Shown one piece after another: positions 27,021 to 43,330 of a stretch of 64,000 nucleotides of DNA. Both the position numbers and the translations under genes were made by a program. Source of the DNA: Candidatus Wolframiiraptor gerlachensis (lineage in GTDB: Archaea; Thermoproteota; Nitrososphaeria_A; Caldarchaeales; Wolframiiraptoraceae); the NCBI GenBank assembly GCA_021323375.2, contig JAJPCT020000018.1, positions 32,001 to 96,000 of the forward strand, written 5' to 3'. Positions within the stretch are counted from its first letter, which is position 1; every line of letters begins with the position of its first letter. The notes under the pieces were generated by a model. That model was not told the DNA's origin. It did not search any database and worked only from the letters and a program-made list of their open reading frames with translations.

Positions 27021-29333
27021 CTAATCCGCTCCCAAGTATCCGGCGAAATAAACCTGTCCTACAGCTGCTCCACCATCCCCAGGCGGGATCATCCTATTTA
27101 CGTGAATCCTGAACCCTGAGGCTCTTTCTATGGCTGAGAGGATTACATGGTTGACAGCGGCACCTCCTGAGACGTATATAGCCTTGACTCCAAGCTCGCG
27201 GGCCTTCTCAGCGGCGACGGCCCCAAGACAACTCCCCAAGATATACTGCGCCGTGTAAGCTATATCATGTCTAGAGTTGTTGTCGAGGCTCTCCACTATG
27301 GCCCTCATGATCTCGCCAGTCATTATTGTGATCGCATCGCCCTTCTTGGAGACGAAGTCATCCGATGGATTACTGATTATCAGCCTCCCGCCATAAGACG
27401 CCTCCTCAAGCATTATCGCCGGCTCGCCCTCATATGTCCTCTCGAGGCAGAGTGTTAGGAGGGCTGAGACGCTATCAAGAAATCTTCCAGTACTTGATGT
27501 CATAGGCCCTCTTCCCCGCCTTATTTGGGCTAGGACCGCCTCAAGCTCTCTAGACCCATGCTTGAACCCTCTCAGGAGGCCGCGCCTCCGGATGAAGGAC
27601 CCGACCTCATCAAGATCCATGAACTTGGATAGTATTGAGGCGAGCATTCTGACGGGCCTATAGGCTGCTAGGTCGCCGCCCGGCATGAGCGAGTAGTCTA
27701 AGAATCCGGCGCGCTCGAATACTCCATCAGCCCATGCTAGGATCTCGCCTCCCCAGATCGCTCCATCGAGCCCATAGCCGGCTCCATCAATCATTATTCC
27801 CACGGCGGGCTCATCCAGGTCATGGCCTACCTCAGCCATAACCGATGCGAAGTGGGCGATGTGATGCTGAACAAGCTTAAGCTCGAGCCCCTTACCGGAT
27901 GCGTATTTCTCCGCAGCCCTCCTTGAATAATAAGCTGGATGGAGATCCGCCGCGACGACTGGCCTTCTCTCAATTAAGCCATAGCATTCTGAGAGGAATT
28001 CGAGGTTGCCGACATGCTCCTCGAGCACCCTCGGATTATCCATGTCGCCCGAGTAGGGTGCCAAGATTATCTTATCATCAAACCCTATTGCGCCATTAGT
28101 CTCGAGATCGCCCCCAAAGGCTATCACGGGCCTCTTAAGGGGATGCTTGAGCTTCATGATCCTCGGGGCATATCCCCTCCCATATCTCAGGATCACCGGA
28201 CCGCCATGAGTCGGCCTAACAACCGAGTCATCAACCCTATGAACTATTTTCCTATTATGCGTCAGGATATAGTCTACTATGCTCGTGAGCTCTTTTAGCC
28301 TCGAGTCATCGCTTATCATGGGGTCTCCATGCACGTTCCCGCTCGTCATTACTAGGAACTTGTCCCTTGTCTCCATAAGTAGAAGGTAGTGGAGGGGCGT
28401 ATATGCGAGCATGAGCCCGAGGCTTCGAAGGGATGGGGCCACATAGTCGGAGACCGGGCAGTCCTCCCTCCTCAGCAGGATTATTATCGGCTTGATGAAC
28501 CCCGTGAACAGGTCGATTAGGTCCTCGGGGATCTCGACAAGCTTCTCCGCGACCTCTAGGTTGAGCGCCATTATTGCGAAGGGCTTTCTAGGCCTCCTCT
28601 TCCTCCTCCTAAGCTCCAAGACAACCTCATCATCGCTCGCGAGGCATGCTATATGATAGCCGCCAATCCCCTTTACCGCGACAATCATCCCCTCGTCAAT
28701 CAGCCTCGCAGCCTGCTTCACGGGATCATCGGCTTCAACTCTCTCAAAACTCCTATCTAGAAGGGATATTCTGGGGCCACATCTAGGGCAGCTTATCCCT
28801 TGAGCATGATACCTCCTCTCATTCCAGAGATCATTATACTCGCTCAAGCACTCATCACATAACGGGAAATCCCTCATCGCCGTATTCTCCCTATCATAGG
28901 GCGGCTTGTAGATCATTGAATACCTGGGCCCGCACCAGGCGCAGCTATTAAACGGGTACCTATACCATCTGCTCGCGGGATTCACCACCTCTCCGAGGCA
29001 GTGCTCGCAGGCGGCAAGATCCTGAGGAATCTCGGATGCTATGATCCTCTCAATGCCGCTCTCAAGTATGATGAAGTCTTGGAGGCTGGAGGGCTTCACC
29101 TCTTCAACCTTTACAATCTCGAGCTTGGCTGGTGGGGGACGTCTCTCCATGAGTAGCCTGAGAAACTCGCCTACACGACCCTCCTCCTCCGACTCGACAA
29201 ATATCTCAACCTCCCCGCCGCCGAGGTTCCTCACATAGCCTCTCACGCCGGTGATCTTGGCTATCCTCCTGACGAATGGCCTGAAGCCGACACCCTGAAC
29301 CATTCCAGTGACATATATTCTCAGAGCCTTCAT
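27021..29333 (-). CDS. hypF: Carbamoyltransferase HypF
   Basis: Acylphosphatase G.VQGVGFRPF, two Zn fingers, KGIGGYH, DLHP.Y, QHH.AH, PGDG. Confidence 0.96.
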   Translation of the reverse strand: MKALRIYVTGMVQGVGFRPFVRRIAKITGVRGYVRNLGGGEVEIFVESEEEGRVGEFLRLLMERRPPPAKLEIVKVEEVKPSSLQDFIILESGIERIIASEIPQDLAACEHCLGEVVNPASRWYRYPFNSCAWCGPRYSMIYKPPYDRENTAMRDFPLCDECLSEYNDLWNERRYHAQGISCPRCGPRISLLDRSFERVEADDPVKQAARLIDEGMIVAVKGIGGYHIACLASDDEVVLELRRRKRRPRKPFAIMALNLEVAEKLVEIPEDLIDLFTGFIKPIIILLRREDCPVSDYVAPSLRSLGLMLAYTPLHYLLLMETRDKFLVMTSGNVHGDPMISDDSRLKELTSIVDYILTHNRKIVHRVDDSVVRPTHGGPVILRYGRGYAPRIMKLKHPLKRPVIAFGGDLETNGAIGFDDKIILAPYSGDMDNPRVLEEHVGNLEFLSECYGLIERRPVVAADLHPAYYSRRAAEKYASGKGLELKLVQHHIAHFASVMAEVGHDLDEPAVGIMIDGAGYGLDGAIWGGEILAWADGVFERAGFLDYSLMPGGDLAAYRPVRMLASILSKFMDLDEVGSFIRRRGLLRGFKHGSRELEAVLAQIRRGRGPMTSSTGRFLDSVSALLTLCLERTYEGEPAIMLEEASYGGRLIISNPSDDFVSKKGDAITIMTGEIMRAIVESLDNNSRHDIAYTAQYILGSCLGAVAAEKARELGVKAIYVSGGAAVNHVILSAIERASGFRIHVNRMIPPGDGGAAVGQVYFAGYLGAD

Positions 29334-29386: not shown

Positions 29387-30685
29387 TTACTCCCTGACTA
29401 TCCTCAGCTTGATGGCGTGAACAGAGCATGAGATACATGGATCATAGTTTCTTATCGTAGTCTCTACTATGTGTTGCGCCTTTTCCGGGGGCCCACTCAA
29501 GATAAGATCCCCGACCTTGAATATGTCCTCCTCCATCGCGGCATAGTTCTGGGTTGTTGGCGGGACTATGTTCGCGTAGAGTATCCTACCCCTCTCATCT
29601 ATCCTATAGCGGTGGTATAGCATCCCCCTCGGGGCCTCGACTATCGCAGCCGCCTCACCAGCCCTGACAACCGCCTCAATATATGGAGCATGAGGTTCTG
29701 AATATTCCTCGATGAGCCTCCCTATCTCGATTATCGAGTGGAGGTTCTCGGCAGCCCTTGCCACGATGCTCTGATAAGTATTCTTGAGGGGGGCTTTGTA
29801 TCCAGCCTTTTCTAGGATATCTTTAACCTCCGGCGCTAGGAGGTCGTAGTTTAGGTTGAACCTTGCGATGGGCCCGGTGATATATGACCTGCCATTCCTC
29901 AACCTGTAATGCAGGCCTGTGGAATACTTCTTCTGCTCAACAATGATGTTATCCTCGAAGGAGTCTTCCGGGAATTCCCAGCCCAAGTTGTTAGCAACCA
30001 CGCCCTCGAGTATCGGGTACTCCTTCTTCCCCTTGAGGGACATAATGACCATGTCATACTCGATGTCCGGCAGATCTAGGTTTAGGATGAACTCGAGGAG
30101 CTTCTCGCCCTTCTTCCTAATCTCATCATAGTCGCGGGCCAGAGGTTCGAGCTCCTCTCTTCTTATGATCCTGTATAGACCTCCAACCCTGAAGCCTATC
30201 GGGTGGATTGCGCGGCCCCCAATTATCTCTATTGCCCTATTACCCCAGCTCCTCACGGCGATGGCGTCCCTGACAAAGTCCGGGTAATCCCTCGCCATCT
30301 CGAGAGCGGAATGATATCCTAGGAAGTCCGGCGCATGGAGGAATGCGAAGTGCAGAACATGGCTCTCGATCCACTCGCCGTAGAAGGCTATCTTTCTAAG
30401 GATCTTTATCTCCTCTGGGATATCTATTCCGAGGATCTTCTCCATGGCCCTGCAGGCCGCAAAGATATAGGCGAGAGGACATATGCCGCAGATCCTCGCT
30501 GTTATATCAGGCGCCTCAAGATAAGGTCTTCCGCGGAGAAATGCCTCAAAGAACCTCGGAGGCTCGAATATGTTGACCTCGACATAGTCTAACTTGCCAT
30601 TCTTCACTCTTACCCAGACTCCTCCCTCACCCTCGACCCTCGCCAGCTGGCTGACCTTTATCTCGAAACTCTTACTCTCGCTCAT
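29387..30685 (-). CDS. hydA: Group 3b [NiFe] sulfhydrogenase large (alpha) subunit
   Basis: RVEGEG, EPPRFFE, L1 RICGIC, EAPRG, L2 DPCISCSVH plus short cleavable tail. Confidence 0.94.
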   Translation of the reverse strand: MSESKSFEIKVSQLARVEGEGGVWVRVKNGKLDYVEVNIFEPPRFFEAFLRGRPYLEAPDITARICGICPLAYIFAACRAMEKILGIDIPEEIKILRKIAFYGEWIESHVLHFAFLHAPDFLGYHSALEMARDYPDFVRDAIAVRSWGNRAIEIIGGRAIHPIGFRVGGLYRIIRREELEPLARDYDEIRKKGEKLLEFILNLDLPDIEYDMVIMSLKGKKEYPILEGVVANNLGWEFPEDSFEDNIIVEQKKYSTGLHYRLRNGRSYITGPIARFNLNYDLLAPEVKDILEKAGYKAPLKNTYQSIVARAAENLHSIIEIGRLIEEYSEPHAPYIEAVVRAGEAAAIVEAPRGMLYHRYRIDERGRILYANIVPPTTQNYAAMEEDIFKVGDLILSGPPEKAQHIVETTIRNYDPCISCSVHAIKLRIVRE

Positions 30686-31457
30686 ACCTCTCCAGGAACC
30701 TCCTAATAGGATCAGACCAACCTGTAAAGCCTCTCAACCTAAGAATAACCTCCTCCTTTGGAAGGCCTATCTCCTCAAGCCTCCTAGCAAGCGCGTCGGG
30801 CTTCGGATCTATCATGGGGCCAAAGCATCCATAACATCCGCGGCCATAACTTGGGCAGAGGGCGCCGCATCCTTCAACCATTATCGGTCCAAGGCATGGA
30901 ATCCCCCGGGAAACCATCACGCAGACATTCCCCCCTCTCTTACACTCTTGGCACAAGCTCTCAAGCCTATGATAAGGCCTCCTACCAGTCAGCACCTGCT
31001 TCAAGACGCTGAAGAGCTGAAGCTCATTCACGGGGCATCCACTAACCTGATAATCCACCCTTATGTGGTCGGATACTGGCGTGGACTTCTCGAGGCTATT
31101 AATCCACTCCGGCTTCGGGTAAACCTGCTTGACAACATCCTGATAATTCATCCAGTTTCTCAACGACTGGATGCCGCCATAGACAGCGCAAGTGCCTATC
31201 GCAATCACGATCCTCGAATTTTTCCTAATCTCCTTGACCAGCTCAACCTCATGCGGCGTTGAGACTGATCCCTCGATTAACGCGACGTCATATGGCCCCG
31301 GATCGATTCTGCTACTGGCCTCGAGGAAATACGCTATCTCGACCTTCTCAATTAGCGAGAGTAGGTTTTCTCCCAGATCTATCAGCTTATCTTGGCACCC
31401 ACTACATGACGAGAACTTGAAAACCGCTAACTTTGCTTTCTTATTATTCCCGCTCAT
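30672..31457 (-). CDS. hydD: Group 3b hydrogenase small (delta) subunit
   Basis: SCSGC, EGSV, GTCA, GCP, CQECK, CLGP, GCGALCP, CYGCFGP. Confidence 0.93.
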   Translation of the reverse strand: MSGNNKKAKLAVFKFSSCSGCQDKLIDLGENLLSLIEKVEIAYFLEASSRIDPGPYDVALIEGSVSTPHEVELVKEIRKNSRIVIAIGTCAVYGGIQSLRNWMNYQDVVKQVYPKPEWINSLEKSTPVSDHIRVDYQVSGCPVNELQLFSVLKQVLTGRRPYHRLESLCQECKRGGNVCVMVSRGIPCLGPIMVEGCGALCPSYGRGCYGCFGPMIDPKPDALARRLEEIGLPKEEVILRLRGFTGWSDPIRRFLERYERE

Positions 31458-32284
31458 ATCTCATCCACCCAGAAATACTTCTTAATTAGCCAGTATGGGA
31501 ATACGGGGCCATGTCTGCAGACGAAGTAGGGGCCCACTTGGCAGTGGCCGCAAAGCCCGATCCCGCACTTCATCCTCCTCTCTAGGGAGAAGTAGATCTG
31601 ATTCTCCTTAAACCCGATCTGCTCAAGAGCCTTAACGGTGAACCTCATCATTATCTCGGGGCCGCAGACGAGGGCTATAGTCCTCTCGACATCTATCCTC
31701 GCCATCGGTATAAGCTCTGTAACAACGCCGACATGATACCTCCAAGTCTCATCAGGGTGATCGACGGTAAGGAGGAACTCCGTATTCGGTATCTCCCTAT
31801 ACCGGTCGAACTCATAGCGGTAGAGTAGGAGGCTGGGAGTTCTCGCTCCATAAAGTATCGTTAGCTTCCCATACTTCCCCCTATTCCTTTCAACCTCTAG
31901 GATGACTCCCCGGAGTGGCGCTAGCCCAATACCGCCAGCCACGATGAGCACATCCTTTCCAGCGAGCTTCTCGATTGGCCAGCCCTTACCATAGGGCCCC
32001 CTTATGCCAACCAAGTCGCCCTCACGCATCTTAAACAGGTAATCGGTCAATGCTCCAACAGATCTTACAGTCTGAACTAGGATCCCATCCTCCAACCCGC
32101 ATATTGAGACGGGGGCCTCACCCACGCCTGGAACGTATACCTCGGTGAATTGCCCCGGCTTAGGCGCCTCAACGAGGCCCCCCTGTACTCTGAAGTAGAA
32201 TGTCTTGGTATCTGGGGTCTCGGGGACTATCTTGACGATCTCGGCCCTAACCGGCACCATCGGAGTCCTGACTACCTCCTGCAC
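31454..32284 (-). CDS. hydG: Group 3b hydrogenase gamma subunit (FAD/NAD(P), [2Fe-2S])
   Basis: PGQF, RGPYG.GW, AGGIGLAPLR, CGPEIMM, LERRMKCGIGLCGHC. Confidence 0.93.
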   Translation of the reverse strand: MQEVVRTPMVPVRAEIVKIVPETPDTKTFYFRVQGGLVEAPKPGQFTEVYVPGVGEAPVSICGLEDGILVQTVRSVGALTDYLFKMREGDLVGIRGPYGKGWPIEKLAGKDVLIVAGGIGLAPLRGVILEVERNRGKYGKLTILYGARTPSLLLYRYEFDRYREIPNTEFLLTVDHPDETWRYHVGVVTELIPMARIDVERTIALVCGPEIMMRFTVKALEQIGFKENQIYFSLERRMKCGIGLCGHCQVGPYFVCRHGPVFPYWLIKKYFWVDEI

Positions 32285-33387
32285 CTCGTCTCCACCTCCT
32301 TCACCACATCTCTCACAACTTGCCTAAGATCTATTCCTGCGGGACACCAGGTTATGCACCTGCCGCATCCCACACATCCAAATGTCCCGAACTGCCTGAT
32401 CCAATACACGAACTTGTGGAGAACCCAGTGCCTATACCTAGCGTAGAGGCTTTTCCTGAAGTGCCCCCCAGCGACCTGAGCATAGCTATAGCTATGGCAT
32501 CCATCCCAGATCCTAATCCTCTTCGCGGATCCATCAAGCTCTGGCTCATCAATAACATCAAAGCAGAAGCATGTAGGGCATACCATATTACAATTAGCAC
32601 AGCCGAAACATCTCTCAGCAATCTTCCTATAAACCTCCGAGTCTAATCCCATCTCGAGGGTCTCAGGAAGATTTTCCAGAGTGAACTCCGCTCGAGCCTT
32701 CTTAGACGCATCCAGCATGAGGTTTCTGAGGAAGTCAACCTGTTCATCCTCGGCAGGCCTGAGACTGAGCTCGCTGAGTATATCCACCCCGAGATCGCTC
32801 CCCGGCTGGAAGATTACAACGCCGCTGCCAACCCTAGTATAGGCCACATCGAATCCCTTGAAAGCAAACGGGCCCGTGCCCATGGTCGCGCAGAAGCATG
32901 TATCTCCAGGCTCCACGCAGTTCTCGACGATGAGAAGAAGGTTCTCCCTAACCTTCCGATAATACTCGTCTCCCAGCTCGCCCTGAACACCATCCATGAC
33001 ATTTATCGCAGCAAGATCACAAGGCTTTATACCGAAAAAGGCCGTCTTGTAGAACTCGAACCTCGGATATTCCACGCTCAGATCAGGCCTAATGATAAAT
33101 AGGAGTAGCTCTGGGGGGTATAGGAACCTCTTTGGCGAGTCCGGGCCATGCCTGAACCTGCCGCCATTATTGACAACGCGATAATATCCAGGAGCCTGCT
33201 TATCCCCATAGCCATATGGGATCTCATTGAAATCATTTAATTGCTCAAGCCTTATGACGGAATTCACGAGCTTGGGCCCTATGACCCTATAACCTCTAGA
33301 AACCGCCACATTGAACAGCGACTTAAGGTCATCTTCCACACCGGAGTAGACCGACCCCCGGAACAACACTTGATCTGCGAAGATCAT
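32272..33387 (-). CDS. hydB: Group 3b hydrogenase beta subunit (AsrA-like [4Fe-4S])
   Basis: FGIKPCD, CFC, CFGCANCNMVCPTCFCF, R.WDGC, CVGCGRCITWCPAGID. Confidence 0.92.
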   Translation of the reverse strand: MIFADQVLFRGSVYSGVEDDLKSLFNVAVSRGYRVIGPKLVNSVIRLEQLNDFNEIPYGYGDKQAPGYYRVVNNGGRFRHGPDSPKRFLYPPELLLFIIRPDLSVEYPRFEFYKTAFFGIKPCDLAAINVMDGVQGELGDEYYRKVRENLLLIVENCVEPGDTCFCATMGTGPFAFKGFDVAYTRVGSGVVIFQPGSDLGVDILSELSLRPAEDEQVDFLRNLMLDASKKARAEFTLENLPETLEMGLDSEVYRKIAERCFGCANCNMVCPTCFCFDVIDEPELDGSAKRIRIWDGCHSYSYAQVAGGHFRKSLYARYRHWVLHKFVYWIRQFGTFGCVGCGRCITWCPAGIDLRQVVRDVVKEVETRCRR

Positions 33388-33510: not shown

Positions 33511-34605
33511 TCAGGTTGCTGTCAATTTTCCAAGTTTATTCAAGCTAACGCTTCCCACATTGACGAGGCTTGGATTCAGCTTAACACTCATGTCTATTAT
33601 GATCTCTGCAATCTCGGCTGAAAGCTCGGCCTGCCTCTTCATACTCCATATAAATTGCGTGAAGTTGGGTCAAAGCACGCTCACATCGCATTTAACCGAT
33701 CTATACCTTAACCTATCGATAATTTCATTTTCGCCGAGTTCTATATCCTCGAGATATCTTCTTATCGCCTCGTTGGCCAGCCTAATATCCTTTGAAAATA
33801 TGGCTCTTATGGCCTTTTCACGAATATTCCGGCAACGTTCATAATATTCCGTAAGTTTTTGAAGTGTCTCCTTATCAAGTTCCACCTCGCAGGTCAGTAT
33901 TTTTAGAACGCTCTTGGCGCCGAGCTTGGATAAATCGGCCATTCTTTCAAGGCAGTAGCCCATTATCGCGAGGAAAGATATCTCCAATGGTTGTGTTATC
34001 CCTAGATTCTCGGCAAAATTCCTCTTCTTATGAGCGGTTGAGAGGGCTCTGGAGAATAGATAGTAGAGCTTATTTACCTCCTCATCCCTCAATATCACCA
34101 TCTTAGCTAGTTCGCGATTCCCCTCAATAAACGCCCTGAAATACTCCTCCTGCATGGATGAGACCAAGTTACAGATCCTCTCTAGAATTGAATAGATTGA
34201 GGACTTAAGGACATCTACTATACATTGTAGCACGACGTGCTGCTCAGTCTCATCCATTACAGAGACCCCTGTCAGCAATTTTAACGCCTCCCGGATCTCC
34301 TTGATATGCCTATAGCTTAAGCGAGTTTTTGAGATAATCTCGATCATGTCGACACCGGCAATATAGCTCGCAACAATCAGCCTGTTTAGAAGCCCGGGCT
34401 GATCGCATAGATCCGCATTTATCCTGCAGGCTTCAAGGGTATGGTCTGCGTCCGATTTAGCGGGCCACAATCTTAACGAACCATCATTATATTCTTCGAT
34501 AACTATGGCGTCCCCCTGCTTAAGACCATGCTCCCTAACCCACCAGTAGGGTAAGGAGATTGTTAAAGTGCCCTTACCAACACGCTGTATCTTACGCTGC
34601 TCCAT
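33511..34605 (-). pseudogene. AbrB-PhoU domain transcriptional regulator with a premature in-frame TGA at 33670-33672
   Basis: AbrB N-terminus RKIQRVG..T..ISLP..WV and PhoU repeats. The frame stays open 52 codons past the TGA (PNFTQFIWSMKRQAELSAEIAEIIIDM...), supplying the last PhoU helix. Confidence 0.75.
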
Positions 34606-34736: not shown

Positions 34737-35234
34737 TTGGTAAATGCTTGGGGTAAAATGAGTGGGAAGATATGTTCCGGCAATCTGATCGAATCTCTCC
34801 AAAGAATTCAAGAAAAGCAAGGATTCTTGCCGAGAGACTCATTAATAAAGCTTTCCCGGGATACGCGGAGCCCTCTAAGCAGGATATTCGGTGTAGCGAC
34901 ATTTTACCACCAGTTCAGGCTGGAACCGCCTGGAAAAGTAACGATTGCTGTTTGCATGGGGACTGCATGCCATCTTAGGGGGAATGCTGAGAACTATGAA
35001 TTTCTAAGGAGATTCTTGGGTATACGGCCCGACAGATCGACGAGCGATGATGGCCTATTCTCCTTGGAGAAGGCTAGATGCTTTGGCTGCTGTAGCCTAG
35101 CCCCAGTGGTGAAGATCGGTGATATGCTCGTCGGCAAGGCCACGCCTAGGGAGCTTCAAAAGGCGATCTCCCGCGTTAGGGAGTCGATTCTGAGGGAGGA
35201 GGCTGCTCGCGGGGCTGGGGGTGGTAAGACATGA
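34737..35234 (+). CDS. HydC/NuoE-like [2Fe-2S] diaphorase subunit (start may be ATG 34758)
   Basis: GVATFY..F, VCMGTACH, RCFGCCSLAP. Confidence 0.92.
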   Translation: MVNAWGKMSGKICSGNLIESLQRIQEKQGFLPRDSLIKLSRDTRSPLSRIFGVATFYHQFRLEPPGKVTIAVCMGTACHLRGNAENYEFLRRFLGIRPDRSTSDDGLFSLEKARCFGCCSLAPVVKIGDMLVGKATPRELQKAISRVRESILREEAARGAGGGKT

Positions 35235-37204
35235 TGAGGCAGGAGTACTGGACATTAATGGATCCATGTTGCGATTATTGTCTTCATTCTCGGGACAATC
35301 CTTGCGCGAAGTATGTTGTCTGCAGAATGCGCGGGCCATTCTGTCACAGGAGTGTGGAGTGTAGGGAGAAGAGGCAGCGGAGGATCAGGGAGGTGCTTTA
35401 CGGCTCGCAGGGCGTTAGAATTAATATCGGTGCATCGAGCTGCGGCTTGGCTGCTGGCGCCGAACGGGTCCTCGAGGCCGTGAAAGATGGTCTCAGATCA
35501 ATGGGCGTGGAGGCGGAGGTTTCCGCGGTGGGCTGTCTGGGATTATGCTTCATGGAGCCCTTCATCGAGATTCAGAGCGAGGATGGTCCATCTCCGATCT
35601 ATGGCTATGTATCGCCCGAGAATGTTGGCGATATTCTTGCCAGGTATTTTGAGGAGGGGAGCGTGGATGGCGCATTCGCGATCAGGAAGCGCACGGGCAG
35701 ATTCAAGGACGAGGATAAGGTCCCCCTCTTGGATGAGCTTGATGTCTGGAGGAAGCAGGTGAAATGGGTTTCTAGAAACTGTGGTGTGATTAACCCGGAG
35801 TCGATCGAGGAGTATATTGTTACAGGCGGTTATGAGGGGCTTTCAAGAGCGCTGACGATGAGGCCTGAGGAGGTTATCGAGGAGATTAGGCTGGCGGGGC
35901 TTAGGGGTAGAGGTGGAGCCGGGTTCCCAACATGGCTCAAGTGGAAGATATGCCGCGAGCAGCCATCAGAGGAGAAGTATGTCATCTGTAATGCTGATGA
36001 GGGTGATCCGGGGGCTTTCATGAATAGGCTCTTGGCGGAGTCTGATCCACACAGGGTGCTGGAGGGCATCATAATAGCTGGATACGCGATAGGCGCTTCT
36101 CAGGGCGTGATTTTTGTCAGGGCGGAGAAGCCCCTGATGGCTGCCAGGCTTGAGAAGGCCGTGGAGGATGCTCGCCGATGGGGGCTTCTGGGCGAGAATA
36201 TCCTCGGATCGGGATTCAGCTTCGATGTGAGGGTGATGAGGAGTGCTGGGGCATTTGTATGCGGGGAGGAGACGGCTATGATAGCGGCTATCGAGGGGAG
36301 GCGTGCGATGCCGCGGCAGCGGCCACCATACCCAGCCTCTAAGGGCCTTTGGGATAAGCCAACGGTGGTCAATAACGTCGAGACGCTGGCGCATGTCGCG
36401 ACGATAATGGCGCATGGATGGCGGGAGTTCGCGAAATATGGGACTGAGCGGAGCAAGGGGACGAAGATGTTCTGCGTAACCGGCGGCGTTAAGAGGACAG
36501 GCGCATTCGAGGTTCCAATAGGCACCACGATCAGGACCCTCGTGTATGATATAGCTGGGGGGCCGCATGAAGGCAGAAGGATAAAGGCGGTTCAGATAGG
36601 AGGACCCTCAGGCGGGTGCCTCCCAGAGAGGCTATTCGACCTACCTATCGATTATGAGAGCCTTCAGGAGGCTGGCGCGATAATGGGCTCCGGGGGCCTA
36701 GTGGTCATAGATGACACTAACTGCATGGTTGATGTGGCGAGATACTTCACTTCATTCACCTTAGCCGAGTCTTGTGGTAAGTGTATACCATGCAGGGTTG
36801 GCACGAAGGCGTTGTATGACCGCTTATCCGCGATAGTTGAGGGTATGAGTAGCCAAGAGGACCTACAATTGCTCGAGGAGATTGGGATTATGATGAAGGA
36901 GGCGGCTCTATGCGCCTTAGGCGGGACCGCGCCAAATCCGATCCTATCATCACTCAGGTACTTTAGAGATGAATATGAGGCCCATATATTGGAGAAGAGA
37001 TGCCCGGCGAAAGTTTGTAGAAAGCTTGTCTCATATGCTATAAACCGGGAGCTTTGCGTCAAATGTGGATTATGTGCCAAGTCATGTCCTGTGGGCGCGA
37101 TAGCAAAAACAGCTGATGGTTACTTCATGATAGATGAGTCTAGGTGCATCAGATGTGGCACGTGCGTTATCACGTGTCCGAGAGGTGCTGTTGAGAAGAG
37201 GTGA
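35231..37204 (+). CDS. HydB/NuoF-like FMN/NAD diaphorase subunit, bifurcating-type architecture
   Basis: GRGGAGFPT, NADEGDPGAFM, GAFVCGEETA, GGPSGG, ESCGKCIPCR, CPAKVC, C-terminal 2x[4Fe-4S]. Confidence 0.93.
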   Translation: MMRQEYWTLMDPCCDYCLHSRDNPCAKYVVCRMRGPFCHRSVECREKRQRRIREVLYGSQGVRINIGASSCGLAAGAERVLEAVKDGLRSMGVEAEVSAVGCLGLCFMEPFIEIQSEDGPSPIYGYVSPENVGDILARYFEEGSVDGAFAIRKRTGRFKDEDKVPLLDELDVWRKQVKWVSRNCGVINPESIEEYIVTGGYEGLSRALTMRPEEVIEEIRLAGLRGRGGAGFPTWLKWKICREQPSEEKYVICNADEGDPGAFMNRLLAESDPHRVLEGIIIAGYAIGASQGVIFVRAEKPLMAARLEKAVEDARRWGLLGENILGSGFSFDVRVMRSAGAFVCGEETAMIAAIEGRRAMPRQRPPYPASKGLWDKPTVVNNVETLAHVATIMAHGWREFAKYGTERSKGTKMFCVTGGVKRTGAFEVPIGTTIRTLVYDIAGGPHEGRRIKAVQIGGPSGGCLPERLFDLPIDYESLQEAGAIMGSGGLVVIDDTNCMVDVARYFTSFTLAESCGKCIPCRVGTKALYDRLSAIVEGMSSQEDLQLLEEIGIMMKEAALCALGGTAPNPILSSLRYFRDEYEAHILEKRCPAKVCRKLVSYAINRELCVKCGLCAKSCPVGAIAKTADGYFMIDESRCIRCGTCVITCPRGAVEKR

Positions 37205-37869
37205 TGGTGATGAAGGTTAGGATAAATGGTTTGGAGGTGGAGGCAAGGGAGGGCGAGAGGATACTCGATGTCGCCAATCGCCTGGGCATTAGGATACCAA
37301 CCCTCTGCTATCTCAAAAATGTGTATGAGGGCGCCTCCTGCAGAATCTGCGTCGTCGAGCTAGGTAATGGAAAGTTGATACCAGCCTGCGCCTATGAGGT
37401 GTCCGATGGCCTCACTATCAGCACCGATACTCCGAGGATTAGGGAGAGCAGGAGGGTGACGCTGGAGCTGCTGCTCTCTGCTCATAGGATTACGTGCCAG
37501 AATTGTCCCAAGAAGGGTGAGTGCACCCTAGTGGAGCTATGCTCCGAGTACGGTGTTGAGGGGATACCAGTATGCGCCGAGTGCCCTCTCCACGGAGAGG
37601 ACTGCTTCATCGCGAGGAGCGAGATCTGCCTAGGCCCGATCACGGCTAGCGGATGCAAAGCTGAGTGTATTCGCGATGGGAGGACTTGCGAGGGCTGCAG
37701 GGGTCCAGTCACGAGGAGAGACGTGATAGAGTGGGCTAGAGGGATTTACATCGAGCATGGCATATCGTTGGAGGCGGTTCTTGAGAAGCTCAAGACATAT
37801 TGTGCTTCATCACGCGAATTCGACCTAATTCGCGAGTATCTTGTGGTGAAGGAGGTGGTTGAGGGATGA
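37201..37869 (+). CDS. Fusion of a HydA/NuoG N-terminal [2Fe-2S] + His-[4Fe-4S] module to the C-terminal half of a group 3 [NiFe] small subunit
   Basis: IPTLC..SCRICVV..PAC and HxxxCxxCxxxxxC (HRITCQNCPKKGEC), then VCAECP..C..CLGPITASGC.A.C...CEGCRGP. Confidence 0.85.
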   Translation: MMVMKVRINGLEVEAREGERILDVANRLGIRIPTLCYLKNVYEGASCRICVVELGNGKLIPACAYEVSDGLTISTDTPRIRESRRVTLELLLSAHRITCQNCPKKGECTLVELCSEYGVEGIPVCAECPLHGEDCFIARSEICLGPITASGCKAECIRDGRTCEGCRGPVTRRDVIEWARGIYIEHGISLEAVLEKLKTYCASSREFDLIREYLVVKEVVEG

Positions 37870-39155
37870 TGAGTGTTCCTGGTATTGATAGGATAGTGGG
37901 CCACGCGACCCTGGACATAGATATGGAGAGAGGGGCGCTGGATGCGCGTTTCAAGGTCTTGAATGATCCACGCTTCATAGAGGCCATAGTGCTAGGGAAG
38001 AAGTATTATGAGGTTCCATCAATTGTCTCTAGGATATGTGGGCCATGTAGCATAAGCCATACGATAACCGCTACGATGGCCATAGAGAAGGCTCTTGGAG
38101 TGAGCGTCCCGGAGCCGGTGAGAATTCTCAGGAGGATAGCTGTGCTTGGGGAAGTGGTTGAGAACCATCTCCTACATCTCACGCTGGTGTGCTTGCCGGA
38201 ATACTTTGGATATGCCGATCTTATTGAGGTCGCCAAGTATAAGCCAGAGCTCCTCAAGAGCATACTGCTCATCAGGTCACAGCTTTCCAAGATCATGGAA
38301 ATGATCTCTGGGAGGCTCGTCCACCCGAACACGCTGATGATAGGTGGGTTCTCCAAGACCCTTGGGAAGACGAAGCTCGAGGAGGCGAGGAACATGTTAA
38401 GGGAGATCAGGGGCAAGATCATCGATATCGCGGAAATATTTCTCGAGATCGAGTTCCCCGAGTTCGAGGTGATAATGGAAGCATGCGCATCCCTGAGGGA
38501 CGACTACCTCTACATCGGGGATGAGATAATCACCTCGGATGAACGGAGGGTTAGAGCGGAGGATTATAGGAAGGTGTTCATAGAGGATGTGCAGCCATAT
38601 ACGACTTCGAAGAGGGTGACGCTTGAGGGGCTGCCCGTATACGTTGGGGCTAGGGCGAGGGTGAACTTGAAGGCCGACATGCTCTCAGAGAGGGCTAAAT
38701 CCTATCTCAAGGCGAGGAGATTCCCGCTGAGAAACCCGTTCGATAATCTAAGGGCGCAGGCCATAGAACTGATTCACTGCATGGATGCCATGGAAATGTT
38801 AATTGAGGAGGTTCTCAATATCCTCGAAGCCAAGTCAATTCATGTAGGATCAGGGATCATGATTAGGGAGGGTGCTGGTGTTGGGGTGTCTGAGGCCCCC
38901 CGCGGCATACTAATCCACCATTATGAGGTTAATTGCTGGGGCAACGTGGTCTATGCCAACGTGATAACGCCAACGACAATAAATTGTAGGCACGTGGAGG
39001 TCGCGGCCCTGGAGCTTATCAGGCACTATTTCTACGAGGATGCACCGGCCACTGAGATAGAACGCTACCTGAGAAAGCTCGTGCAGGCATATGACCCATG
39101 TCTCGGCTGCGCAACCCACTCGGTCAAGATAAACATTAGGGGGTTGAAAGCATGA
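37866..39155 (+). CDS. Group 3-like [NiFe] hydrogenase large subunit of the hybrid complex
   Basis: L1 RICGPC, EAPRG, PTT, L2 DPCLGCATH plus tail; N-terminal RIVGH in place of RxEG. Confidence 0.9.
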   Translation: MMSVPGIDRIVGHATLDIDMERGALDARFKVLNDPRFIEAIVLGKKYYEVPSIVSRICGPCSISHTITATMAIEKALGVSVPEPVRILRRIAVLGEVVENHLLHLTLVCLPEYFGYADLIEVAKYKPELLKSILLIRSQLSKIMEMISGRLVHPNTLMIGGFSKTLGKTKLEEARNMLREIRGKIIDIAEIFLEIEFPEFEVIMEACASLRDDYLYIGDEIITSDERRVRAEDYRKVFIEDVQPYTTSKRVTLEGLPVYVGARARVNLKADMLSERAKSYLKARRFPLRNPFDNLRAQAIELIHCMDAMEMLIEEVLNILEAKSIHVGSGIMIREGAGVGVSEAPRGILIHHYEVNCWGNVVYANVITPTTINCRHVEVAALELIRHYFYEDAPATEIERYLRKLVQAYDPCLGCATHSVKINIRGLKA

Positions 39156-40540
39156 GGATCGGCATATACTCATTCGGCGGATGCGAGGGCTGCAGATACT
39201 GGCTAATAGACTCGATGCTGAGAGTATGCGAGGAACTTGGCGCCGAGATAGTCTATGAGCCCCTCATCGGGCTTTCCAAGGAGAACCCCGAATACGATTT
39301 GGTAATCATCGAGGGGGCTGTCTGCACCGACGAGGACTCCGAGAAGCTCCAGAGACTGAGATCTCGAGCGAAGTATCTCGTCGCCCTAGGCTCCTGTGCC
39401 CTGCTCAGCGGTGTGCCAGGCCTTAAGAGGTTCACGGATCCACGCGCGGCCGAGATGGTCTACTTTGGCAAGCCGTTGCCGAAGAAGCCGGTTGACGTGA
39501 AGCCGATAACTGCCTATATTCATGTAGATTATTGGATCAGGGGATGCCCGCCGGATCGAGAGAACTTCGAGAGGCTCTTTAGGGCCATAATCTCCGGCAT
39601 CGCCTCCGGGAGGCCTTTCAAGCTCCATGAGAGGAGACTGGAATTCTGCAGGGAGGAATTCACGAGCATCGAGGGAAGCGTGCTAAGGCTCGACGGCGAC
39701 AAGTGCATGGTCTGCGGTAGATGTGTCGGCGCCTGCGAGAGGATGGGAGTCTACGCGATAGACTATGCGTACAGGAGCATAAGCACAGTCGTGACAACGC
39801 CCTTCTCAATACCCTTCGATGAGAGCACATGTGTGCTATGCGGCCAGTGTACGCTCGTCTGCCCGGTCGGCGCGATCCGCGAGAGGAGTGACCTAGAAAA
39901 GGTTCAAAGAATTCTATCAAGGCCCACGGCGCTAAGAGCTTACATAGAGCCTGAGAGCCTAGCAGCTATGTCCAGCTACTTCAACCGCGAGGTCGAGGTA
40001 ATCATTGGAGCGCTTATCGCCAGAGGCTTTGAGAGCGTTGCAATATATGTGCCCGAGTATCACGCCGATGTCGAGAGACCGCTGATCCCCGCGAGCGAGG
40101 CCGAAAGGAGATTTATCAACATATTCTATCCACAGCTAGCTGAACTATTGTCGGAGCCGCCGGCTCCGCCGGGAGGATCATCAGTCCTGATAACGCCGTG
40201 CTTAGCTAAGAAGGCGCAGGCCCGTGAGGGATTAGTATTAACAACTCGCGAGGCGATCAAGCTAATCTCCAACATCGACTTGGACGAGGTCGAGGGGACC
40301 CTCCCCATAATGCCCTCCAGAAAAAGCATCACCTTCAGGGAGGTTCATGGGCCGGATAACGTGATTAGGTTCCTAGAGGAATATACGAGGGGGGTGCGCG
40401 TCAAGGAGCCGATGATACTTAAGATGTGCCCAGGCGGATGCCTTGGAGGCGGAGGACAACCATACTATAACGAGGACCTCTATCGGAGGATGAATGAGGC
40501 GCTTGCGAGGATATCTTCCACGCTCCTAGTCATTGATTGA
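39152..40540 (+). CDS. Fusion of a [NiFe] small-subunit N-terminal domain, 2x[4Fe-4S] and a degenerate [FeFe]-hydrogenase H-domain
   Basis: GCEGC, EGAV, GSCA, GCPP; KCMVCGRC...C and CVLCGQC..VCPVGA; L2-like TPCLAKK; L3-like MCPGGCLGGGGQP; L1 region PASEAE has no Cys. Confidence 0.87.
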   Translation: MRIGIYSFGGCEGCRYWLIDSMLRVCEELGAEIVYEPLIGLSKENPEYDLVIIEGAVCTDEDSEKLQRLRSRAKYLVALGSCALLSGVPGLKRFTDPRAAEMVYFGKPLPKKPVDVKPITAYIHVDYWIRGCPPDRENFERLFRAIISGIASGRPFKLHERRLEFCREEFTSIEGSVLRLDGDKCMVCGRCVGACERMGVYAIDYAYRSISTVVTTPFSIPFDESTCVLCGQCTLVCPVGAIRERSDLEKVQRILSRPTALRAYIEPESLAAMSSYFNREVEVIIGALIARGFESVAIYVPEYHADVERPLIPASEAERRFINIFYPQLAELLSEPPAPPGGSSVLITPCLAKKAQAREGLVLTTREAIKLISNIDLDEVEGTLPIMPSRKSITFREVHGPDNVIRFLEEYTRGVRVKEPMILKMCPGGCLGGGGQPYYNEDLYRRMNEALARISSTLLVID

Positions 40541-41008
40541 ATCCAGCTCGAGCAGGCGGGATATACTCTCCAATATTTTCGGGATCGCTTTCTCCACCTC
40601 CTCACTCAATCCTATTCCCGGACTTATCTCCTTGGCTCCCACGCCGACTAAGAGGATCCTGCGGGGCATTTTATCCCTGAAGAGCTCGTATCCCAGCCTG
40701 ATAGCTGAGACCACGTCAATATCATGCAGCGATTGAATTTCACCGACATGCTCCTGAGACAGCCCACCCAGATCCACCACGACCACCTCGCCCGGAGATA
40801 ATCCGGATTTGACGACATCGACTATTATCAAGCCGTCAAATCCTGTGATCTCGTCCAGGAGCGTGAAGACGTCTAAGCCTGTTTCAAAGATCTTTACCTC
40901 GGCTGGTAGATCGCGCTTGAGAAGGATCTCGCCCACGACTAGGCCGAGAGCATCATCTTTCATGAGCCTGCTGCCAACACATAGTATCAGGATTTTTCGG
41001 GCCCTCAT
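40526..41008 (-). CDS. Hydrogenase maturation endopeptidase (HycI/HybD family)
   Basis: GS.LM.DD.LG, IIVD, SLHD, GLSEEV. Confidence 0.9.
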   Translation of the reverse strand: MRARKILILCVGSRLMKDDALGLVVGEILLKRDLPAEVKIFETGLDVFTLLDEITGFDGLIIVDVVKSGLSPGEVVVVDLGGLSQEHVGEIQSLHDIDVVSAIRLGYELFRDKMPRRILLVGVGAKEISPGIGLSEEVEKAIPKILESISRLLELDSIND

Positions 41009-41061: not shown

Positions 41062-42129
41062 CTAGCAGATCCTGGGAACCGGGTCTCCAAGGGGCATCGG
41101 CAGATATCTTAGCCCACCTATCTCGGTCTCAACGACGACCCCCTCAAGCTCATCGGAGAACCATCCTATTATCTCGGCCTCGCGGCCTAGTGGATGAGAG
41201 CGGAGGGCTTCCAAGACCTCCTCCGCGAACCTCTCGGAGACCGCTAGGACAACTCTTCCCTCGCATGCCAGTTCAAGCGGATCTATCCCCAGTATCTCGC
41301 AGCCGATTCTCACCTCATCGCGGACCGGTATAAGGGCTTCTTTCACGAGTATGCCGAGGCCCGTGGCCTCGCTCCACTCATTTAGAAGAGCCGCCAACCC
41401 CCCTCTAGTTGGATCCTTCGCCGCCACAACCCCTCCCACCTCGAGAGCCCTCTTCATGAGATGATTCAATGGCGCGGTATCCGATTTTAGGCCCGGCGCC
41501 TCGAAGCCAAGCTCACCCCTAGCAGCTATAATTGTCATCGCATGGTCGCCGATGGGCCCCGAGACTATCAGCCTATCTCCCGGCCTCACATTCCGGGGAT
41601 CAAGCCATCTCGATCTCAGGGATCTCCCATCAGATGCCACCCTCTCCAAGTTCTTATCCAAGTATGGGCTCCTCCCACCGATGCCAGCCGTGTTGATTAT
41701 CATCTCATCGAGCTTGCCCCTTTCCACGACCTTTGTGTCGCCTGTCACGATCTCGACGCCAGCCTCCTCAGCCGTCTCCTCCATGCTCGATAGAATCCTA
41801 TCCAGCTTCTCTATCTCGAAGCCCTCCTCGATCACTAAAGCGCATGAGATTGCTATGGGCTCGCTTCCCACCACTGAGAGATCGTTCACGGTCCCGGAGA
41901 CGCTGAGCCTCCCTATATCGCCTCCAGGGAAGAAGAGGGGCTTAACGGTATAGGAGTCTGTCGTGAACGCTATCCCATCGACAACAGCCGAGTCGGCGAG
42001 GAGGGGGAGAGGGATCTCAATAACCCTCCTCTGCTTAAACCTTGGAAGAATATGCTCCCTGATAAGCTTATGCATGTAGAGGCCGCCAGCACCATGTGCT
42101 ATGCTTATCCTATTATCCACGCCCACCAA
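41062..42129 (-). CDS. hypE: Hydrogenase maturation protein HypE
   Basis: HGAGG, TTDSY.V.PLFFPGGDIG, GDTKVV, DPTRGG, C-terminal PRIC. Confidence 0.96.
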   Translation of the reverse strand: MVGVDNRISIAHGAGGLYMHKLIREHILPRFKQRRVIEIPLPLLADSAVVDGIAFTTDSYTVKPLFFPGGDIGRLSVSGTVNDLSVVGSEPIAISCALVIEEGFEIEKLDRILSSMEETAEEAGVEIVTGDTKVVERGKLDEMIINTAGIGGRSPYLDKNLERVASDGRSLRSRWLDPRNVRPGDRLIVSGPIGDHAMTIIAARGELGFEAPGLKSDTAPLNHLMKRALEVGGVVAAKDPTRGGLAALLNEWSEATGLGILVKEALIPVRDEVRIGCEILGIDPLELACEGRVVLAVSERFAEEVLEALRSHPLGREAEIIGWFSDELEGVVVETEIGGLRYLPMPLGDPVPRIC

Positions 42130-42154: not shown

Positions 42155-43330
42155 TCAGGGGCCTCGCCTCACGATTAATCCACAGACCCCGCTCATACAT
42201 CTGATATCCTTAACCAATATCCTGTTCTGAGCCCATATCCTGCATGTTCCCTCAATCCCAACCATCGCCGGGCCCACCGGAGTCGATGGGGTACACTTCT
42301 TCATGTATAGGGGGCAGTCCGGTGGATCAATAATCCCCTTTATTATCTCGGCGCATCTAGCCTCCGACGGGAAGCAGTCTCCTCCTCCATGCTCTAGGCC
42401 ATAAGTCCTTCTAGCATCAACTTGGGAGAACATTTCCTTAAAGTTCATGGCACTTTCAGGTATTATCGCGACACCTCTCCAATAGCCATCCTCGAAATCG
42501 AAGACCTCTTGGAGAGCCTTCTGCGCCTTCAGGTTCCCCTCCCACGTCACAGATCTCACATACTCGTTCTCCATCCTCGGGGCGCGATCCCTTAGCTGCT
42601 TGAGAACCATGTAGATCGCCATCAAGACGTCTATGGGCTCGAAGCCCGCGAAGACCATCGGCTTGCCACACTTATCGAAATACGGCTTATACGCCTTCAT
42701 ACCGCTCACGGTCGAGGCGTGGCCCGGATTTATGAAAGCATCTATCTCGAGATCCTCGGATTCCGCTAGAAGCCCGACAGCCGGCGGGACATACCTGTGG
42801 GCGGAGAGGACCTTAAGGTTTCTCGGAAGCCCCTTCAGGACGAAATAGGCCACGGTTGGCGCCGTGGTCTCAAAGCCTGCTCCAAGGAATACATACTCCT
42901 TATCCGGGTTACTGCTAGCGATCTTGACAGCATCCATGAAGCTATACACAACCCCAACCCTCCCACCCTCAGCAGCACAATCCTCCAGCGAGATCATCCT
43001 AGAACCCTTAGCCCTAGACACATCACCATAGGTAAGCACATGGATCCCATCAAGCGCGAGCCCGACGGCCACATCTATATCAGATGCAGGGGTTATGCAG
43101 ACTGGGCAGCCGGGTCCAGCCCTAACCTCAACATTATCCGGCAGAAGAGCCCTAATACCCCAATGAGTTATGGTCCACTCATGAGTCCCACACACATGCA
43201 TTATCCTAACCCTCGGAAGATCCCTAGCAACCTCCCAGATCTTCTCAACTAGCCTCCTAGCAAGAGCTGGATCCCTATATCTCGAAAGAATCACCCTCAC
43301 ACGATCCAAGGACCCCATACCATCTATCAC
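42155..43330 (-). CDS. hypD: Hydrogenase maturation protein HypD
   Basis: MHVCGTHE, GPGCPVC, GFETTAP, PGHAS, GFEP. Confidence 0.96.
   Translation of the reverse strand: MIDGMGSLDRVRVILSRYRDPALARRLVEKIWEVARDLPRVRIMHVCGTHEWTITHWGIRALLPDNVEVRAGPGCPVCITPASDIDVAVGLALDGIHVLTYGDVSRAKGSRMISLEDCAAEGGRVGVVYSFMDAVKIASSNPDKEYVFLGAGFETTAPTVAYFVLKGLPRNLKVLSAHRYVPPAVGLLAESEDLEIDAFINPGHASTVSGMKAYKPYFDKCGKPMVFAGFEPIDVLMAIYMVLKQLRDRAPRMENEYVRSVTWEGNLKAQKALQEVFDFEDGYWRGVAIIPESAMNFKEMFSQVDARRTYGLEHGGGDCFPSEARCAEIIKGIIDPPDCPLYMKKCTPSTPVGPAMVGIEGTCRIWAQNRILVKDIRCMSGVCGLIVRRGP

Follow-up and report, generated by a model that had tools for sequence, protein, structure and literature searches.

Whether an archaeal operon that joins parts of [NiFe] and [FeFe] hydrogenases in one polypeptide encodes two sites of hydrogen chemistry or only one is the question raised by a locus of the hot-spring archaeon Candidatus Wolframiiraptor gerlachensis (assembly GCA_021323375.2, contig JAJPCT020000018.1). 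The window analysed here is a stretch of 64,000 nucleotides (positions 32,001 to 96,000 of the contig, forward strand), in which five plus-strand open reading frames (ORFs) fill positions 34737-40540 of the window. Labelled by their domains, they encode HydC (P0001, 34737-35234), HydB (P0002, 35231-37204), HydD (P0003, 37201-37869), HyhL (P0004, 37866-39155) and a fusion protein (P0005, 39152-40540). Every junction is a 4-nt overlap (ATGA, GTGA, ATGA, ATGA), the usual sign of translational coupling, so that the five tightly overlapping genes seen in an earlier note, which had been made from the letters of this DNA alone, are indeed found. The gene identities have been taken from Pfam and NCBIfam searches of the window proteins, which agree with the subunits named there, i.e., HydC, HydB, an FeS fusion protein, a [NiFe] large subunit and a small-subunit/HydA fusion. 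With a probability of roughly two in three, we read the operon as encoding a Bfu-type bifurcating or confurcating [NiFe] hydrogenase that carries a non-catalytic relic of an H-domain with at most a plain Fe-S cluster. Related operons have been introduced as group F [FeFe]/group 3f [NiFe] hydrogenases, in which a small-subunit/HydA fusion is combined with HydB, HydC, HydD and HyhL (Greening et al., 2024, PMC11216029), and that report has been taken to mean that, in many orders, a single archaeal complex is active on H2 at two sites.

The fusion protein of 462 residues carries a small-subunit domain (Oxidored_q6) and an H-domain (Fe_hyd_lg_C) in a single chain, with a 4Fe-4S dicluster between them. 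Its gene comprises the N-terminal half of a [NiFe] small subunit with the proximal cluster (39152-39622, Oxidored_q6 at residues 11-144), a HydA-type 2x[4Fe-4S] ferredoxin domain (39674-39901, Fer4 families at residues 180-243) and the shortened H-domain relic (39917-40540, Fe_hyd_lg_C at residues 344-434). Three motifs mark the H-cluster site of catalytic HydA, with the consensus TSCCPxW (L1), MPCxxK (L2) and CxxGCxxGGGQP (L3). The relic retains L2 as TPCLAKK (40193-40213) and L3 as CPGGCLGGGGQP (40427-40462), whereas L1 is missing and PASEAE (40088-40105) stands in place of TSCCP; all three motifs are present exactly as the earlier note had quoted them. A further deviation is EPE (39947-39955), found where group A HydA has APS or APA. 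In a hidden Markov model (HMM) profile alignment to T. kivui HydA1 and in a MAFFT alignment, Ser315 falls on the second Cys of TSCCP, a ligand of the cubane, and Ala314 on the first, positions which we take to be C300 and the proton-relay residue C299 of CpI. The ferredoxin-plus-H stretch occupies 290 profile positions, whereas it takes up 398 residues in T. kivui HydA1, so that the domain, as had been claimed, is much shortened (by about 108 residues). Compared with group A HydA and with the long family treated below, both stretches that separate the motifs, L1 from L2 and L2 from L3, are far shorter; in CpI these stretches contribute residues to the pocket. The Pfam match is confined to positions 124-245 of the 245 in Fe_hyd_lg_C and reaches 24.7 bits at a cut-off of 22.1.

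In spite of these losses, the fold is retained. An AlphaFold2 model of the fusion protein, built with 21 family sequences, has a mean predicted local distance difference test score (pLDDT) of 78, rising to 85-97 over residues 250-460. Compared by VIA, it aligns with CpI (4xdc_A) over 298 residues at Z 26.2, with a root-mean-square deviation of 3.2 Å and 27% identity, with 7p8n_a at Z 25.4, and with the D. desulfuricans large subunit at Z about 22 (model residues 174-441 on residues 24-393 of the chain). The best Foldseek matches in the PDB are all HydA (8a6t_A, E 9.2e-17), and a search with the relic on its own (207 residues) gives 42 PDB sequences at E<=10, each of them an [FeFe] hydrogenase, with T. 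maritima HydA at the top (1.3e-5). The model thus gives the relic the Fe_hyd_lg_C fold, and the failure to align with it that the earlier note had named as a refutation has not been observed.

The substitution at the ligand position is shared by a family. A word-indexed search has returned 23 clusters with the same fusion architecture, and in an exhaustive profile search 12 representatives at 50% identity align end to end, with lengths of 427-501 residues; the next groups have 563-580 and then 476-520 residues. For this short family we have aligned 43 distinct sequences, several of them close relatives, consisting of 31 database proteins and 12 locus ORFs, the incomplete ORF of locus L020 being left out. 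Position 315 is Ser in 42 of the 43 and Cys in the remaining one, and position 314 is variable, with Cys in four. Cys350, Cys426 and Cys430 are present in all 43 and Glu318 in 41, and the bridging Cys430, the CPGGC and GGGQP loop and a Lys or Arg at the position of CpI K358 (K/R353) are likewise kept, as are the acidic residues E266, E268 and E318, which line the region of the former pocket. The alignment thus marks the exchange of Cys for Ser as a family trait and not as decay. The closest named relatives belong to Candidatus Wolframiiraptor allenii, where the fusion protein is 87-88% identical, and relative to the ortholog of that species (L008) the ratio of nonsynonymous to synonymous substitution rates (dN/dS) amounts to 0.13 for the relic, 0.11 for the small-subunit domain, 0.04 for the ferredoxin domain and 0.08 for HyhL, values that indicate purifying selection on the relic too.

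The relic has very probably lost its hydrogen-making site. It is judged not to be catalytic because the ligand Cys, the proton-relay Cys and about 108 residues have been lost and because HydE and HydG are absent (see below), and still to be functional because the three Cys and Glu318 are conserved, dN/dS is 0.13 and the fold is kept. The proposal in the earlier note that the HydA remnant is a scaffold or relay and not a catalyst is therefore upheld, although its two halves deserve separate weight. A relic that binds no metal cluster and acts purely as a scaffold, holding the 2x[4Fe-4S] domain and HydD in place, would agree with the loss of one of four cluster ligands in 42 of 43 sequences and with the contacts that residues 366, 370, 373-374 and 438-439 of the relic make with HydD in a predicted complex. 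We regard such a pure scaffold as unlikely, because the former ligand Cys are invariant and Ser315 and Glu318 nearly so, a pattern typical of a metal site and unneeded for packing. In the preferred reading of a bifurcating [NiFe] hydrogenase with a cluster-binding relic, a [4Fe-4S] or [3Fe-4S] cluster would most likely be held by Cys350, Cys426 and Cys430 together with Ser315 (or Glu318); the [2Fe] subcluster would be lacking and no H2 would be made at this site.

The maturation genes point in the same direction. In the whole genome, which comprises 1.28 Mb on 27 contigs and is 89% complete, the fusion protein gives the single Fe_hyd_lg_C match. The earlier note had found no hydEFG genes in the window; HydE and HydG are absent from the whole genome as well, and no HydF is found there above the cut-off of 325.55 bits, the generic GTPases that match scoring no more than 55.6. 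Neither HydE nor HydG has been detected above cut-off in any of 19 other genomes that carry a short-family protein, which brings the count to 0 of 20 genomes searched. These results bear on a two-headed enzyme in which the relic would activate H2 at an H-cluster-like or otherwise unusual cofactor on Cys430, built by an archaeal pathway. The kept HydA fold (Z 26.2), the conservation of C430, CPGGC, GGGQP and K/R353 and the conserved glutamates at the former pocket all speak for it, and of two Thermoplasmata fusion proteins of group F one (Th1) makes H2 after loading with [2Fe]adt, an alternative archaeal maturation having been proposed (PMC11216029). The assayed group F proteins, however, belong to a long branch with the ligand Cys and a full H-domain, whereas the relic has Ser at the ligand Cys, a proton-relay position that varies and trimmed segments on either side of L2; together with the absence of HydE and HydG, this makes the two-headed enzyme very improbable.

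The comparison with group F therefore deserves detail. The window operon shares with it the small-subunit N-domain fused to a HydA C-terminus, contiguous with HydC, HydB, a four-cluster HydD and HyhL. In the main text of the 2024 report the Cys ligands of the H-cluster are stated to be conserved, the modelled example being Thermoplasmatota UBA147 (PMC11216029). The contig of UBA147 (L094) has been retrieved in our scan with the group of 563-580 residues as query, and differs in several respects: its type keeps the ligand Cys, with SWCPSA at L1, where the window protein has Ser315; long-type proteins match Fe_hyd_lg_C over positions 7-245 with 77-84 bits (77.2 for the UBA147 protein) against positions 124-245 and 24.7 bits; the long-type HydB has 1049 residues with Fer4_20 and Pyr_redox_2 (L089), whereas the window HydB ends in 2x[4Fe-4S] and has no glutamate-synthase-like domain of the kind that goes with group F; and the fusion gene is first in six of seven long or intermediate loci but last in the window operon. 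In an unrooted maximum-likelihood tree, made quickly from 56 rows of ferredoxin plus H-domain and supported by the Shimodaira-Hasegawa-like approximate likelihood ratio test (SH-aLRT), the short family of 427-501 residues forms one side of a branch with a value of 98, and the UBA147 type of about 570 residues with its relatives, i.e., the long and intermediate types, form a separate clade with 99; the branch that places all fused proteins on one side has a support of only 50. The first two branches within the short clade are the Brockarchaeota protein P0131, with Cys-Cys at positions 314-315, and the protein P0132, with Cys-Ser, while the remaining 25 rows form a clade (SH-aLRT 98). P0131 and P0132 have 487 and 501 residues, respectively, and are longer than the rest of the short clade. 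By sequence and length both appear to be stages on the way to losing the H-cluster site, and, if the root lies outside the short clade, serine at 315 would be the derived state, and degeneration, not a primitive form, would be seen.

The survey behind the 2024 report kept any match with CxxxC and at least 15.9 bits and lists 21 group F genomes, from classes including Thermoproteia, Bathyarchaeia and Brockarchaeia (PMC11216029). Because of this filter and of the classes listed, members of the short clade are probably among the 21. The word "degenerate" does not occur in the main text, and no mention of the loss of the ligand Cys has been found in it (PMC11216029). What the earlier note had described as known from archaea thus stands for the hybrid architecture and not for a degenerate type as a reported kind, at least as far as that main text is concerned; likewise, "hybrid" holds for the gene architecture and probably not for the chemistry. 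Compared with the same main text, the novelty lies in a distinct, widespread and conserved branch with Ser at the ligand position, a trimmed H-domain and a canonical Bfu HydB, and in a reciprocal swap of HydA and small-subunit halves that would rebuild both proteins, the architecture as such having been known since 2024. As a separate observation, fusion proteins matched over query positions 1-547 to 1-549 occur on contigs labelled Balneolales, Cyclonatronaceae and the like (L097, L100, L101, L103-L105, L108, L116), which have been binned as bacteria of soda-lake sediment, whereas similar loci (L098, L112) have been binned as Thermoplasmata-type archaea; mis-binning or transfer could account for them.

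The short branch itself has a wide range. Its members come from Caldarchaeales, Bathyarchaeia, Brockarchaeota and Asgard archaea of the Njord and Odin types, besides records that bear the labels Desulfurococcales, Thermofilum, Pyrobaculum and Sulfolobales. The same five-gene order is present in 10 of the 14 loci L008-L021 and in L135, L144, L145 and L165, which by their record titles include Desulfurococcales, Thermofilaceae/Thermofilum, Pyrobaculum, Zestosphaera and metagenome-assembled genomes (MAGs) of Sulfolobales. In three Bathyarchaeia MAG loci (L011, L014, L021) HydC, HydB, HydD and the fusion protein are encoded in a row without hyhL, and the sole large subunit at L011 is a 25%-identical protein encoded downstream on the opposite strand; the [NiFe] partner may be encoded elsewhere in these lineages, or the module may work without one.

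With catalysis at the relic very probably lost, the nature of the enzyme depends on its remaining subunits. The hydB gene (35231-37204) encodes a flavoprotein of 657 residues, for which Complex1_51K, SLBB, NADH_4Fe-4S and a C-terminal 2x[4Fe-4S] domain have been identified with Pfam and NCBIfam. The order from the N-terminus is a Cys-rich CCxxC prefix, a [2Fe-2S]-like domain, the flavin mononucleotide (FMN)/nicotinamide adenine dinucleotide (NAD(H)) domain, SLBB, [4Fe-4S] and the 2x[4Fe-4S] ferredoxin, the match to the N-terminal thioredoxin-like [2Fe-2S] domain being weak. The best matches among PDB sequences are all Bfu B subunits, i.e., NfnB (9n5u_B, 1.3e-209) and HydB of the Acetomicrobium mobile NiFe enzyme (7t2r_B, 6.2e-201), with which residues 71-656 are collinear over residues 16-596 of 597. 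The hydC gene (34737-35234, with TTG at 34737 or ATG at 34758 as the start codon) encodes a NuoE/HoxE-like [2Fe-2S] subunit of thioredoxin fold (BfuC; Pfam 2Fe-2S_thioredx, E 2.7e-37), which the NCBIfam models HoxE and NuoE both match below their cut-offs. Domains and collinearity together thus indicate the complete Bfu core, consisting of a BfuB with FMN, N-terminal [2Fe-2S] and C-terminal 2x[4Fe-4S], and of the [2Fe-2S] of BfuC; judged by its sequence, HydB is a canonical, full-length Bfu-type subunit.

An ordinary [NiFe] hydrogenase of the HoxEFUYH kind, linked to NAD(P) and unable to bifurcate, or HydBC and the [NiFe] parts as separate enzymes, would find some agreement in the NCBIfam models HoxE and HoxU, which match HydC and HydD, although below cut-off. 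We consider either version quite improbable, since HoxF (5xf9_A) matches HydB far more weakly (7.3e-76) than the Bfu B subunits do, and since the N-terminal [2Fe-2S] and the C-terminal 2x[4Fe-4S] domains of HydB have been described as unique to bifurcating enzymes (PMC8880783); the overlap at every junction and a gene order kept in distant lineages also speak against it. As a side observation, the prefix of HydB (residues 1-60, 35231-35410) contains seven Cys and matches the NCBIfam model NF040902, "CCxxC motif-containing NuoF prefix domain", with 63.5 bits at a cut-off of 45; it has no counterpart in the solved A. mobile HydB, the alignment beginning at residue 71. In L018, L019, L135, L144, L145 and L165 the tblastn matches begin only at query residues 40-52 of HydB, so that some lineages seem to be without this prefix.

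The [NiFe] site appears intact. HyhL (37866-39155) is a large subunit of 429 residues with the NiFeSe_Hases domain, nearest to group 3b, and carries both Cys pairs, RICGPCSISH (38031-38060) and DPCLGCATH (39093-39119), the latter followed by a tail of 11 residues, SVKINIRGLKA, of the kind that is removed by a maturation protease. Its PDB matches are 5yxy_A (2.3e-62), the alpha subunit of P. furiosus sulfhydrogenase I (SHI; 7.9e-62) and A. mobile HydL (2.6e-33). Convergent with the operon on the minus strand lies the gene of a HycI-type [NiFe] maturation endopeptidase (40526-41008, Pfam HycI, E 2.2e-18), followed on the same strand by a hypE-like gene (41062-42129, AIRS and AIRS_C domains) and hypD (43330 to 42155, i.e., 42155-43330; HypD, E 7.5e-124), both for cofactor maturases. 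The hypF gene (27021-29333, minus strand) encodes the carbamoyltransferase for the CN ligands of the [NiFe] site, with Acylphosphatase, zf-HYPF, Sua5 and HypF_C domains, and hypC and hypA are found elsewhere in the genome, outside the window. The large-subunit CxxC pairs, the proximal-cluster Cys of the small subunit and the Hyp maturases of a group 3 [NiFe] hydrogenase are therefore all present. The full-length Bfu-type HydB, the intact HyhL and the flanking Hyp and HycI genes accord with the H2:NAD+/ferredoxin [NiFe] enzyme that the earlier note had proposed. In four loci (L015, L016, L017, L020) the products of the hyhL orthologs lack any C-terminal extension, the last His of DPCxxCxxH being their terminal residue, and some lineages may thus skip the proteolytic maturation of HyhL.

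A further feature is the way in which the [NiFe] and HydA parts are connected. HydD (222 residues) is composed of an N-terminal half (37201-37560) that corresponds to the N-terminus of HydA/NuoG, with a [2Fe-2S] and a His-ligated [4Fe-4S] cluster (Fer2_4, NADH-G_4Fe-4S_3), and of a C-terminal half (37561-37869) whose counterpart is the second half of a group-3 [NiFe] small subunit, with the medial and distal clusters. Among proteins of solved structure, A. woodii HydA1 aligns by its residues 6-128 with 6-127 of HydD (E 5e-26), and P. furiosus SHI delta, the small subunit, by its residues 161-245 with 122-204 (E 5.5e-13); the C-terminal half also matches positions 157-238 of the 240 in the NCBIfam model ShyD, the HoxU match mentioned above lying below cut-off. 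The fusion protein supplies the complementary pieces: its family profile aligns at 1-153 with SHI delta 3-156 (E 1.1e-34) and at 157-446 with T. kivui HydA1 120-517 (E 9.9e-47 for the whole sequence), and the fusion model matches SHI delta by VIA at Z 16.1. Because the halves of HydD and of the fusion protein align with complementary parts of HydA1 and SHI delta, it looks as if a HydA had been cut near residue 125 and a small subunit near residue 158 and the pieces had been joined crosswise. The cluster ligands are kept throughout. In HydD (13 sequences) C36, C47, C50, C63, H95, C99 and C108 of the N-terminal half are invariant and C102 nearly so, and Cys 125, 128, 135, 143, 152, 156, 163 and 166 of the C-terminal half are invariant, which accounts for the ligands of four clusters, namely four Cys for [2Fe-2S], His and three Cys for [4Fe-4S] and eight more Cys. 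In the fusion protein C11, C14, C82 and C132 of the first domain are conserved, and Cys 185, 188, 191, 195, 227, 230, 233 and 237 of the second are present in 43 of 43 sequences.

A complex of HydD and the fusion protein has been predicted with an interaction prediction score from aligned errors (ipSAE) of 0.84, while none of three controls rose above 0.00. The mark applied is reached by 58 of 80 solved complexes and by 2 of 110 mismatched pairs, counts that hold only roughly here, where our own alignments were used. At least 85% of the contacts are common to the runs, with a partner pLDDT of 86 or more. The contacts of lowest error lie at the two expected seams, that of HydA (HydD 95-96 with fusion 183-185) and that of the small subunit (HydD 166-168 with fusion 130). 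The prediction has taken in this pair only, the five subunits together amounting to 1935 residues. The earlier note had made its case depend on the subunits forming one complex, and for the two chimeric subunits such binding is predicted.

On this basis we infer that the five proteins would form one cytoplasmic complex that couples H2 with NAD(H) and ferredoxin. The H2 chemistry would take place at the [NiFe] site of HyhL, built by the products of the flanking Hyp and HycI genes, and HydD bound to the fusion protein would rebuild both the small subunit and the Y-shaped cluster wire of HydA. Electrons would pass from [NiFe] over the proximal, medial and distal clusters to the His-ligated cluster, the central [4Fe-4S] and the [2Fe-2S], and from there over the [4Fe-4S] of HydB to FMN, where they would be split by the clusters of HydB and HydC towards NAD+ and ferredoxin. 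The relic would lie on a side branch, at the position of clusters A4/A5 in the bacterial NiFe-HydABCSL.

A solved precedent for such an arrangement exists in this enzyme of A. mobile (Feng et al., 2022, PDB 7T2R/7T30), in which the HydA fold is kept and the H-cluster site holds a simple cluster, A5, on the A4/A5 side branch, while electrons run from [NiFe] over a single HydS cluster and the Y-shaped HydA wire to FMN (PMC8880783). Both enzymes share the Bfu HydBC core and a [NiFe] module, the matches being 6.2e-201 for HydB and 6.8e-22 for HydS. In A. mobile, however, HydA and HydS are separate and unsplit, whereas the halves are swapped between two genes in the window, and the A. mobile small subunit has a proximal cluster only (PMC8880783), whereas the medial and distal clusters are kept in HydD. 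For HyhL the best match is of archaeal group 3b (2.3e-62), A. mobile HydL following at 2.6e-33. As a candidate source of the relic, A. mobile HydA has been rejected, being absent from the 42 PDB sequence matches of the relic at E<=10; it is also absent among the 50 entries listed by Foldseek and by VIA, which is no proof of different folds. Because HyhL is nearest to group 3b and the relic has no match to A. mobile HydA, the two losses of the H-cluster look independent, and the archaeal operon would be an independent version of NiFe-HydABCSL.

With catalytic HydA (group A CpI, and the HydABC enzymes of T. maritima and T. kivui) the relic shares the fold of ferredoxin and H-domain and the motifs L2 and L3, the N-terminal part of HydA being located in HydD; unlike catalytic HydA, it has lost L1, carries Ser at the ligand position, is about 108 residues shorter, is accompanied by no maturases and has a small-subunit domain in front. 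A HydA fold that binds Fe-S clusters with no [2Fe] subcluster is familiar from Nar1/NARF of the cytosolic iron-sulfur assembly (CIA) pathway, which are eukaryotic, stand-alone proteins and keep all four Cys of the cluster site.

Several points weigh against a bifurcating [NiFe] hydrogenase with a cluster-binding relic. Both the geometry of Ser315 or Glu318 relative to the three Cys and the cluster distances derive from the alignment to CpI. A plain cluster is not obviously in need of C430, GGGQP and the Lys or Arg at the K358 position. The predicted binding of HydD and the fusion protein calls for caution because both are halves of proteins that have been solved whole, so that the good score may reflect this likeness and not actual binding. 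The genome completeness of 89% limits what follows from the absence of HydE and HydG. This absence is moreover weak evidence because archaea without HydEFG may mature H-clusters in another way: most HydA-bearing archaea lack HydEFG as well, and an alternative maturation route has been argued for (PMC11216029). As to expression, the sequencing runs found to contain the stretch or part of it are 16 DNA runs, with no RNA run among them; they come mainly from hot springs, two bear the label of a sediment metagenome, and two of the 16 may be the source of the DNA. One further reading would turn the relic into a repurposed site, in which the invariant residues of S-x-A-E and E-P-E, Cys430 and the three-Cys cubane form a new cluster-plus-metal or substrate site, or into a dedicated docking port for a fourth redox partner; we hold this to be rather unlikely, but if it were true the enzyme would be a four-way electron junction.

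The surroundings of the operon add a second hydrogenase. Directly upstream and divergent, a four-gene cytoplasmic [NiFe] set occupies 29387-33387 on the minus strand and resembles a group 3b sulfhydrogenase, with an alpha subunit of 432 residues, an unsplit delta of 261, a gamma of 276 (NAD_binding_1 and DHODB Fe-S) and a beta of 371 (Fer4_22). In all, the genome encodes three [NiFe] large subunits, two of them in the window (HyhL and that of the 3b-like set) and one of group-4 type on another contig. Between the two sets, and divergent from hydC, a protein of 311 residues is encoded (33670-34605, minus strand), which by its N-terminal MazE/AbrB-like and PhoU domains is a possible regulator. 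In the paper on Wolframiiraptor (PMC9246946) only a membrane-bound Mbh hydrogenase is discussed in the parts consulted, and this operon is not; those of PMC10547907 contain nothing on it either, and PMC12542729 and PMC11697101 proved unrelated to a degenerate type.

An inactive relic would mean that the hydrogenase of these organisms is a bifurcating [NiFe] enzyme and not an [FeFe] one, and that the bacterial enzyme of A. mobile has an independent archaeal counterpart. A bolder and rather unlikely reading extends this to most group F archaeal [FeFe] hydrogenases outside Thermoplasmatota and Hadarchaeota, which would be non-catalytic like the relic, and the claimed spread of [FeFe] hydrogenases in archaea would then shrink. 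Since W. gerlachensis has been cultivated (PMC9246946), native purification of the complex is conceivable. With an inactive relic, the branch would also represent a natural series for asking which features enable an H-domain to bind the [2Fe] subcluster, leading from the full domain over the basal proteins with Cys-Cys and Cys-Ser to those with Ser.

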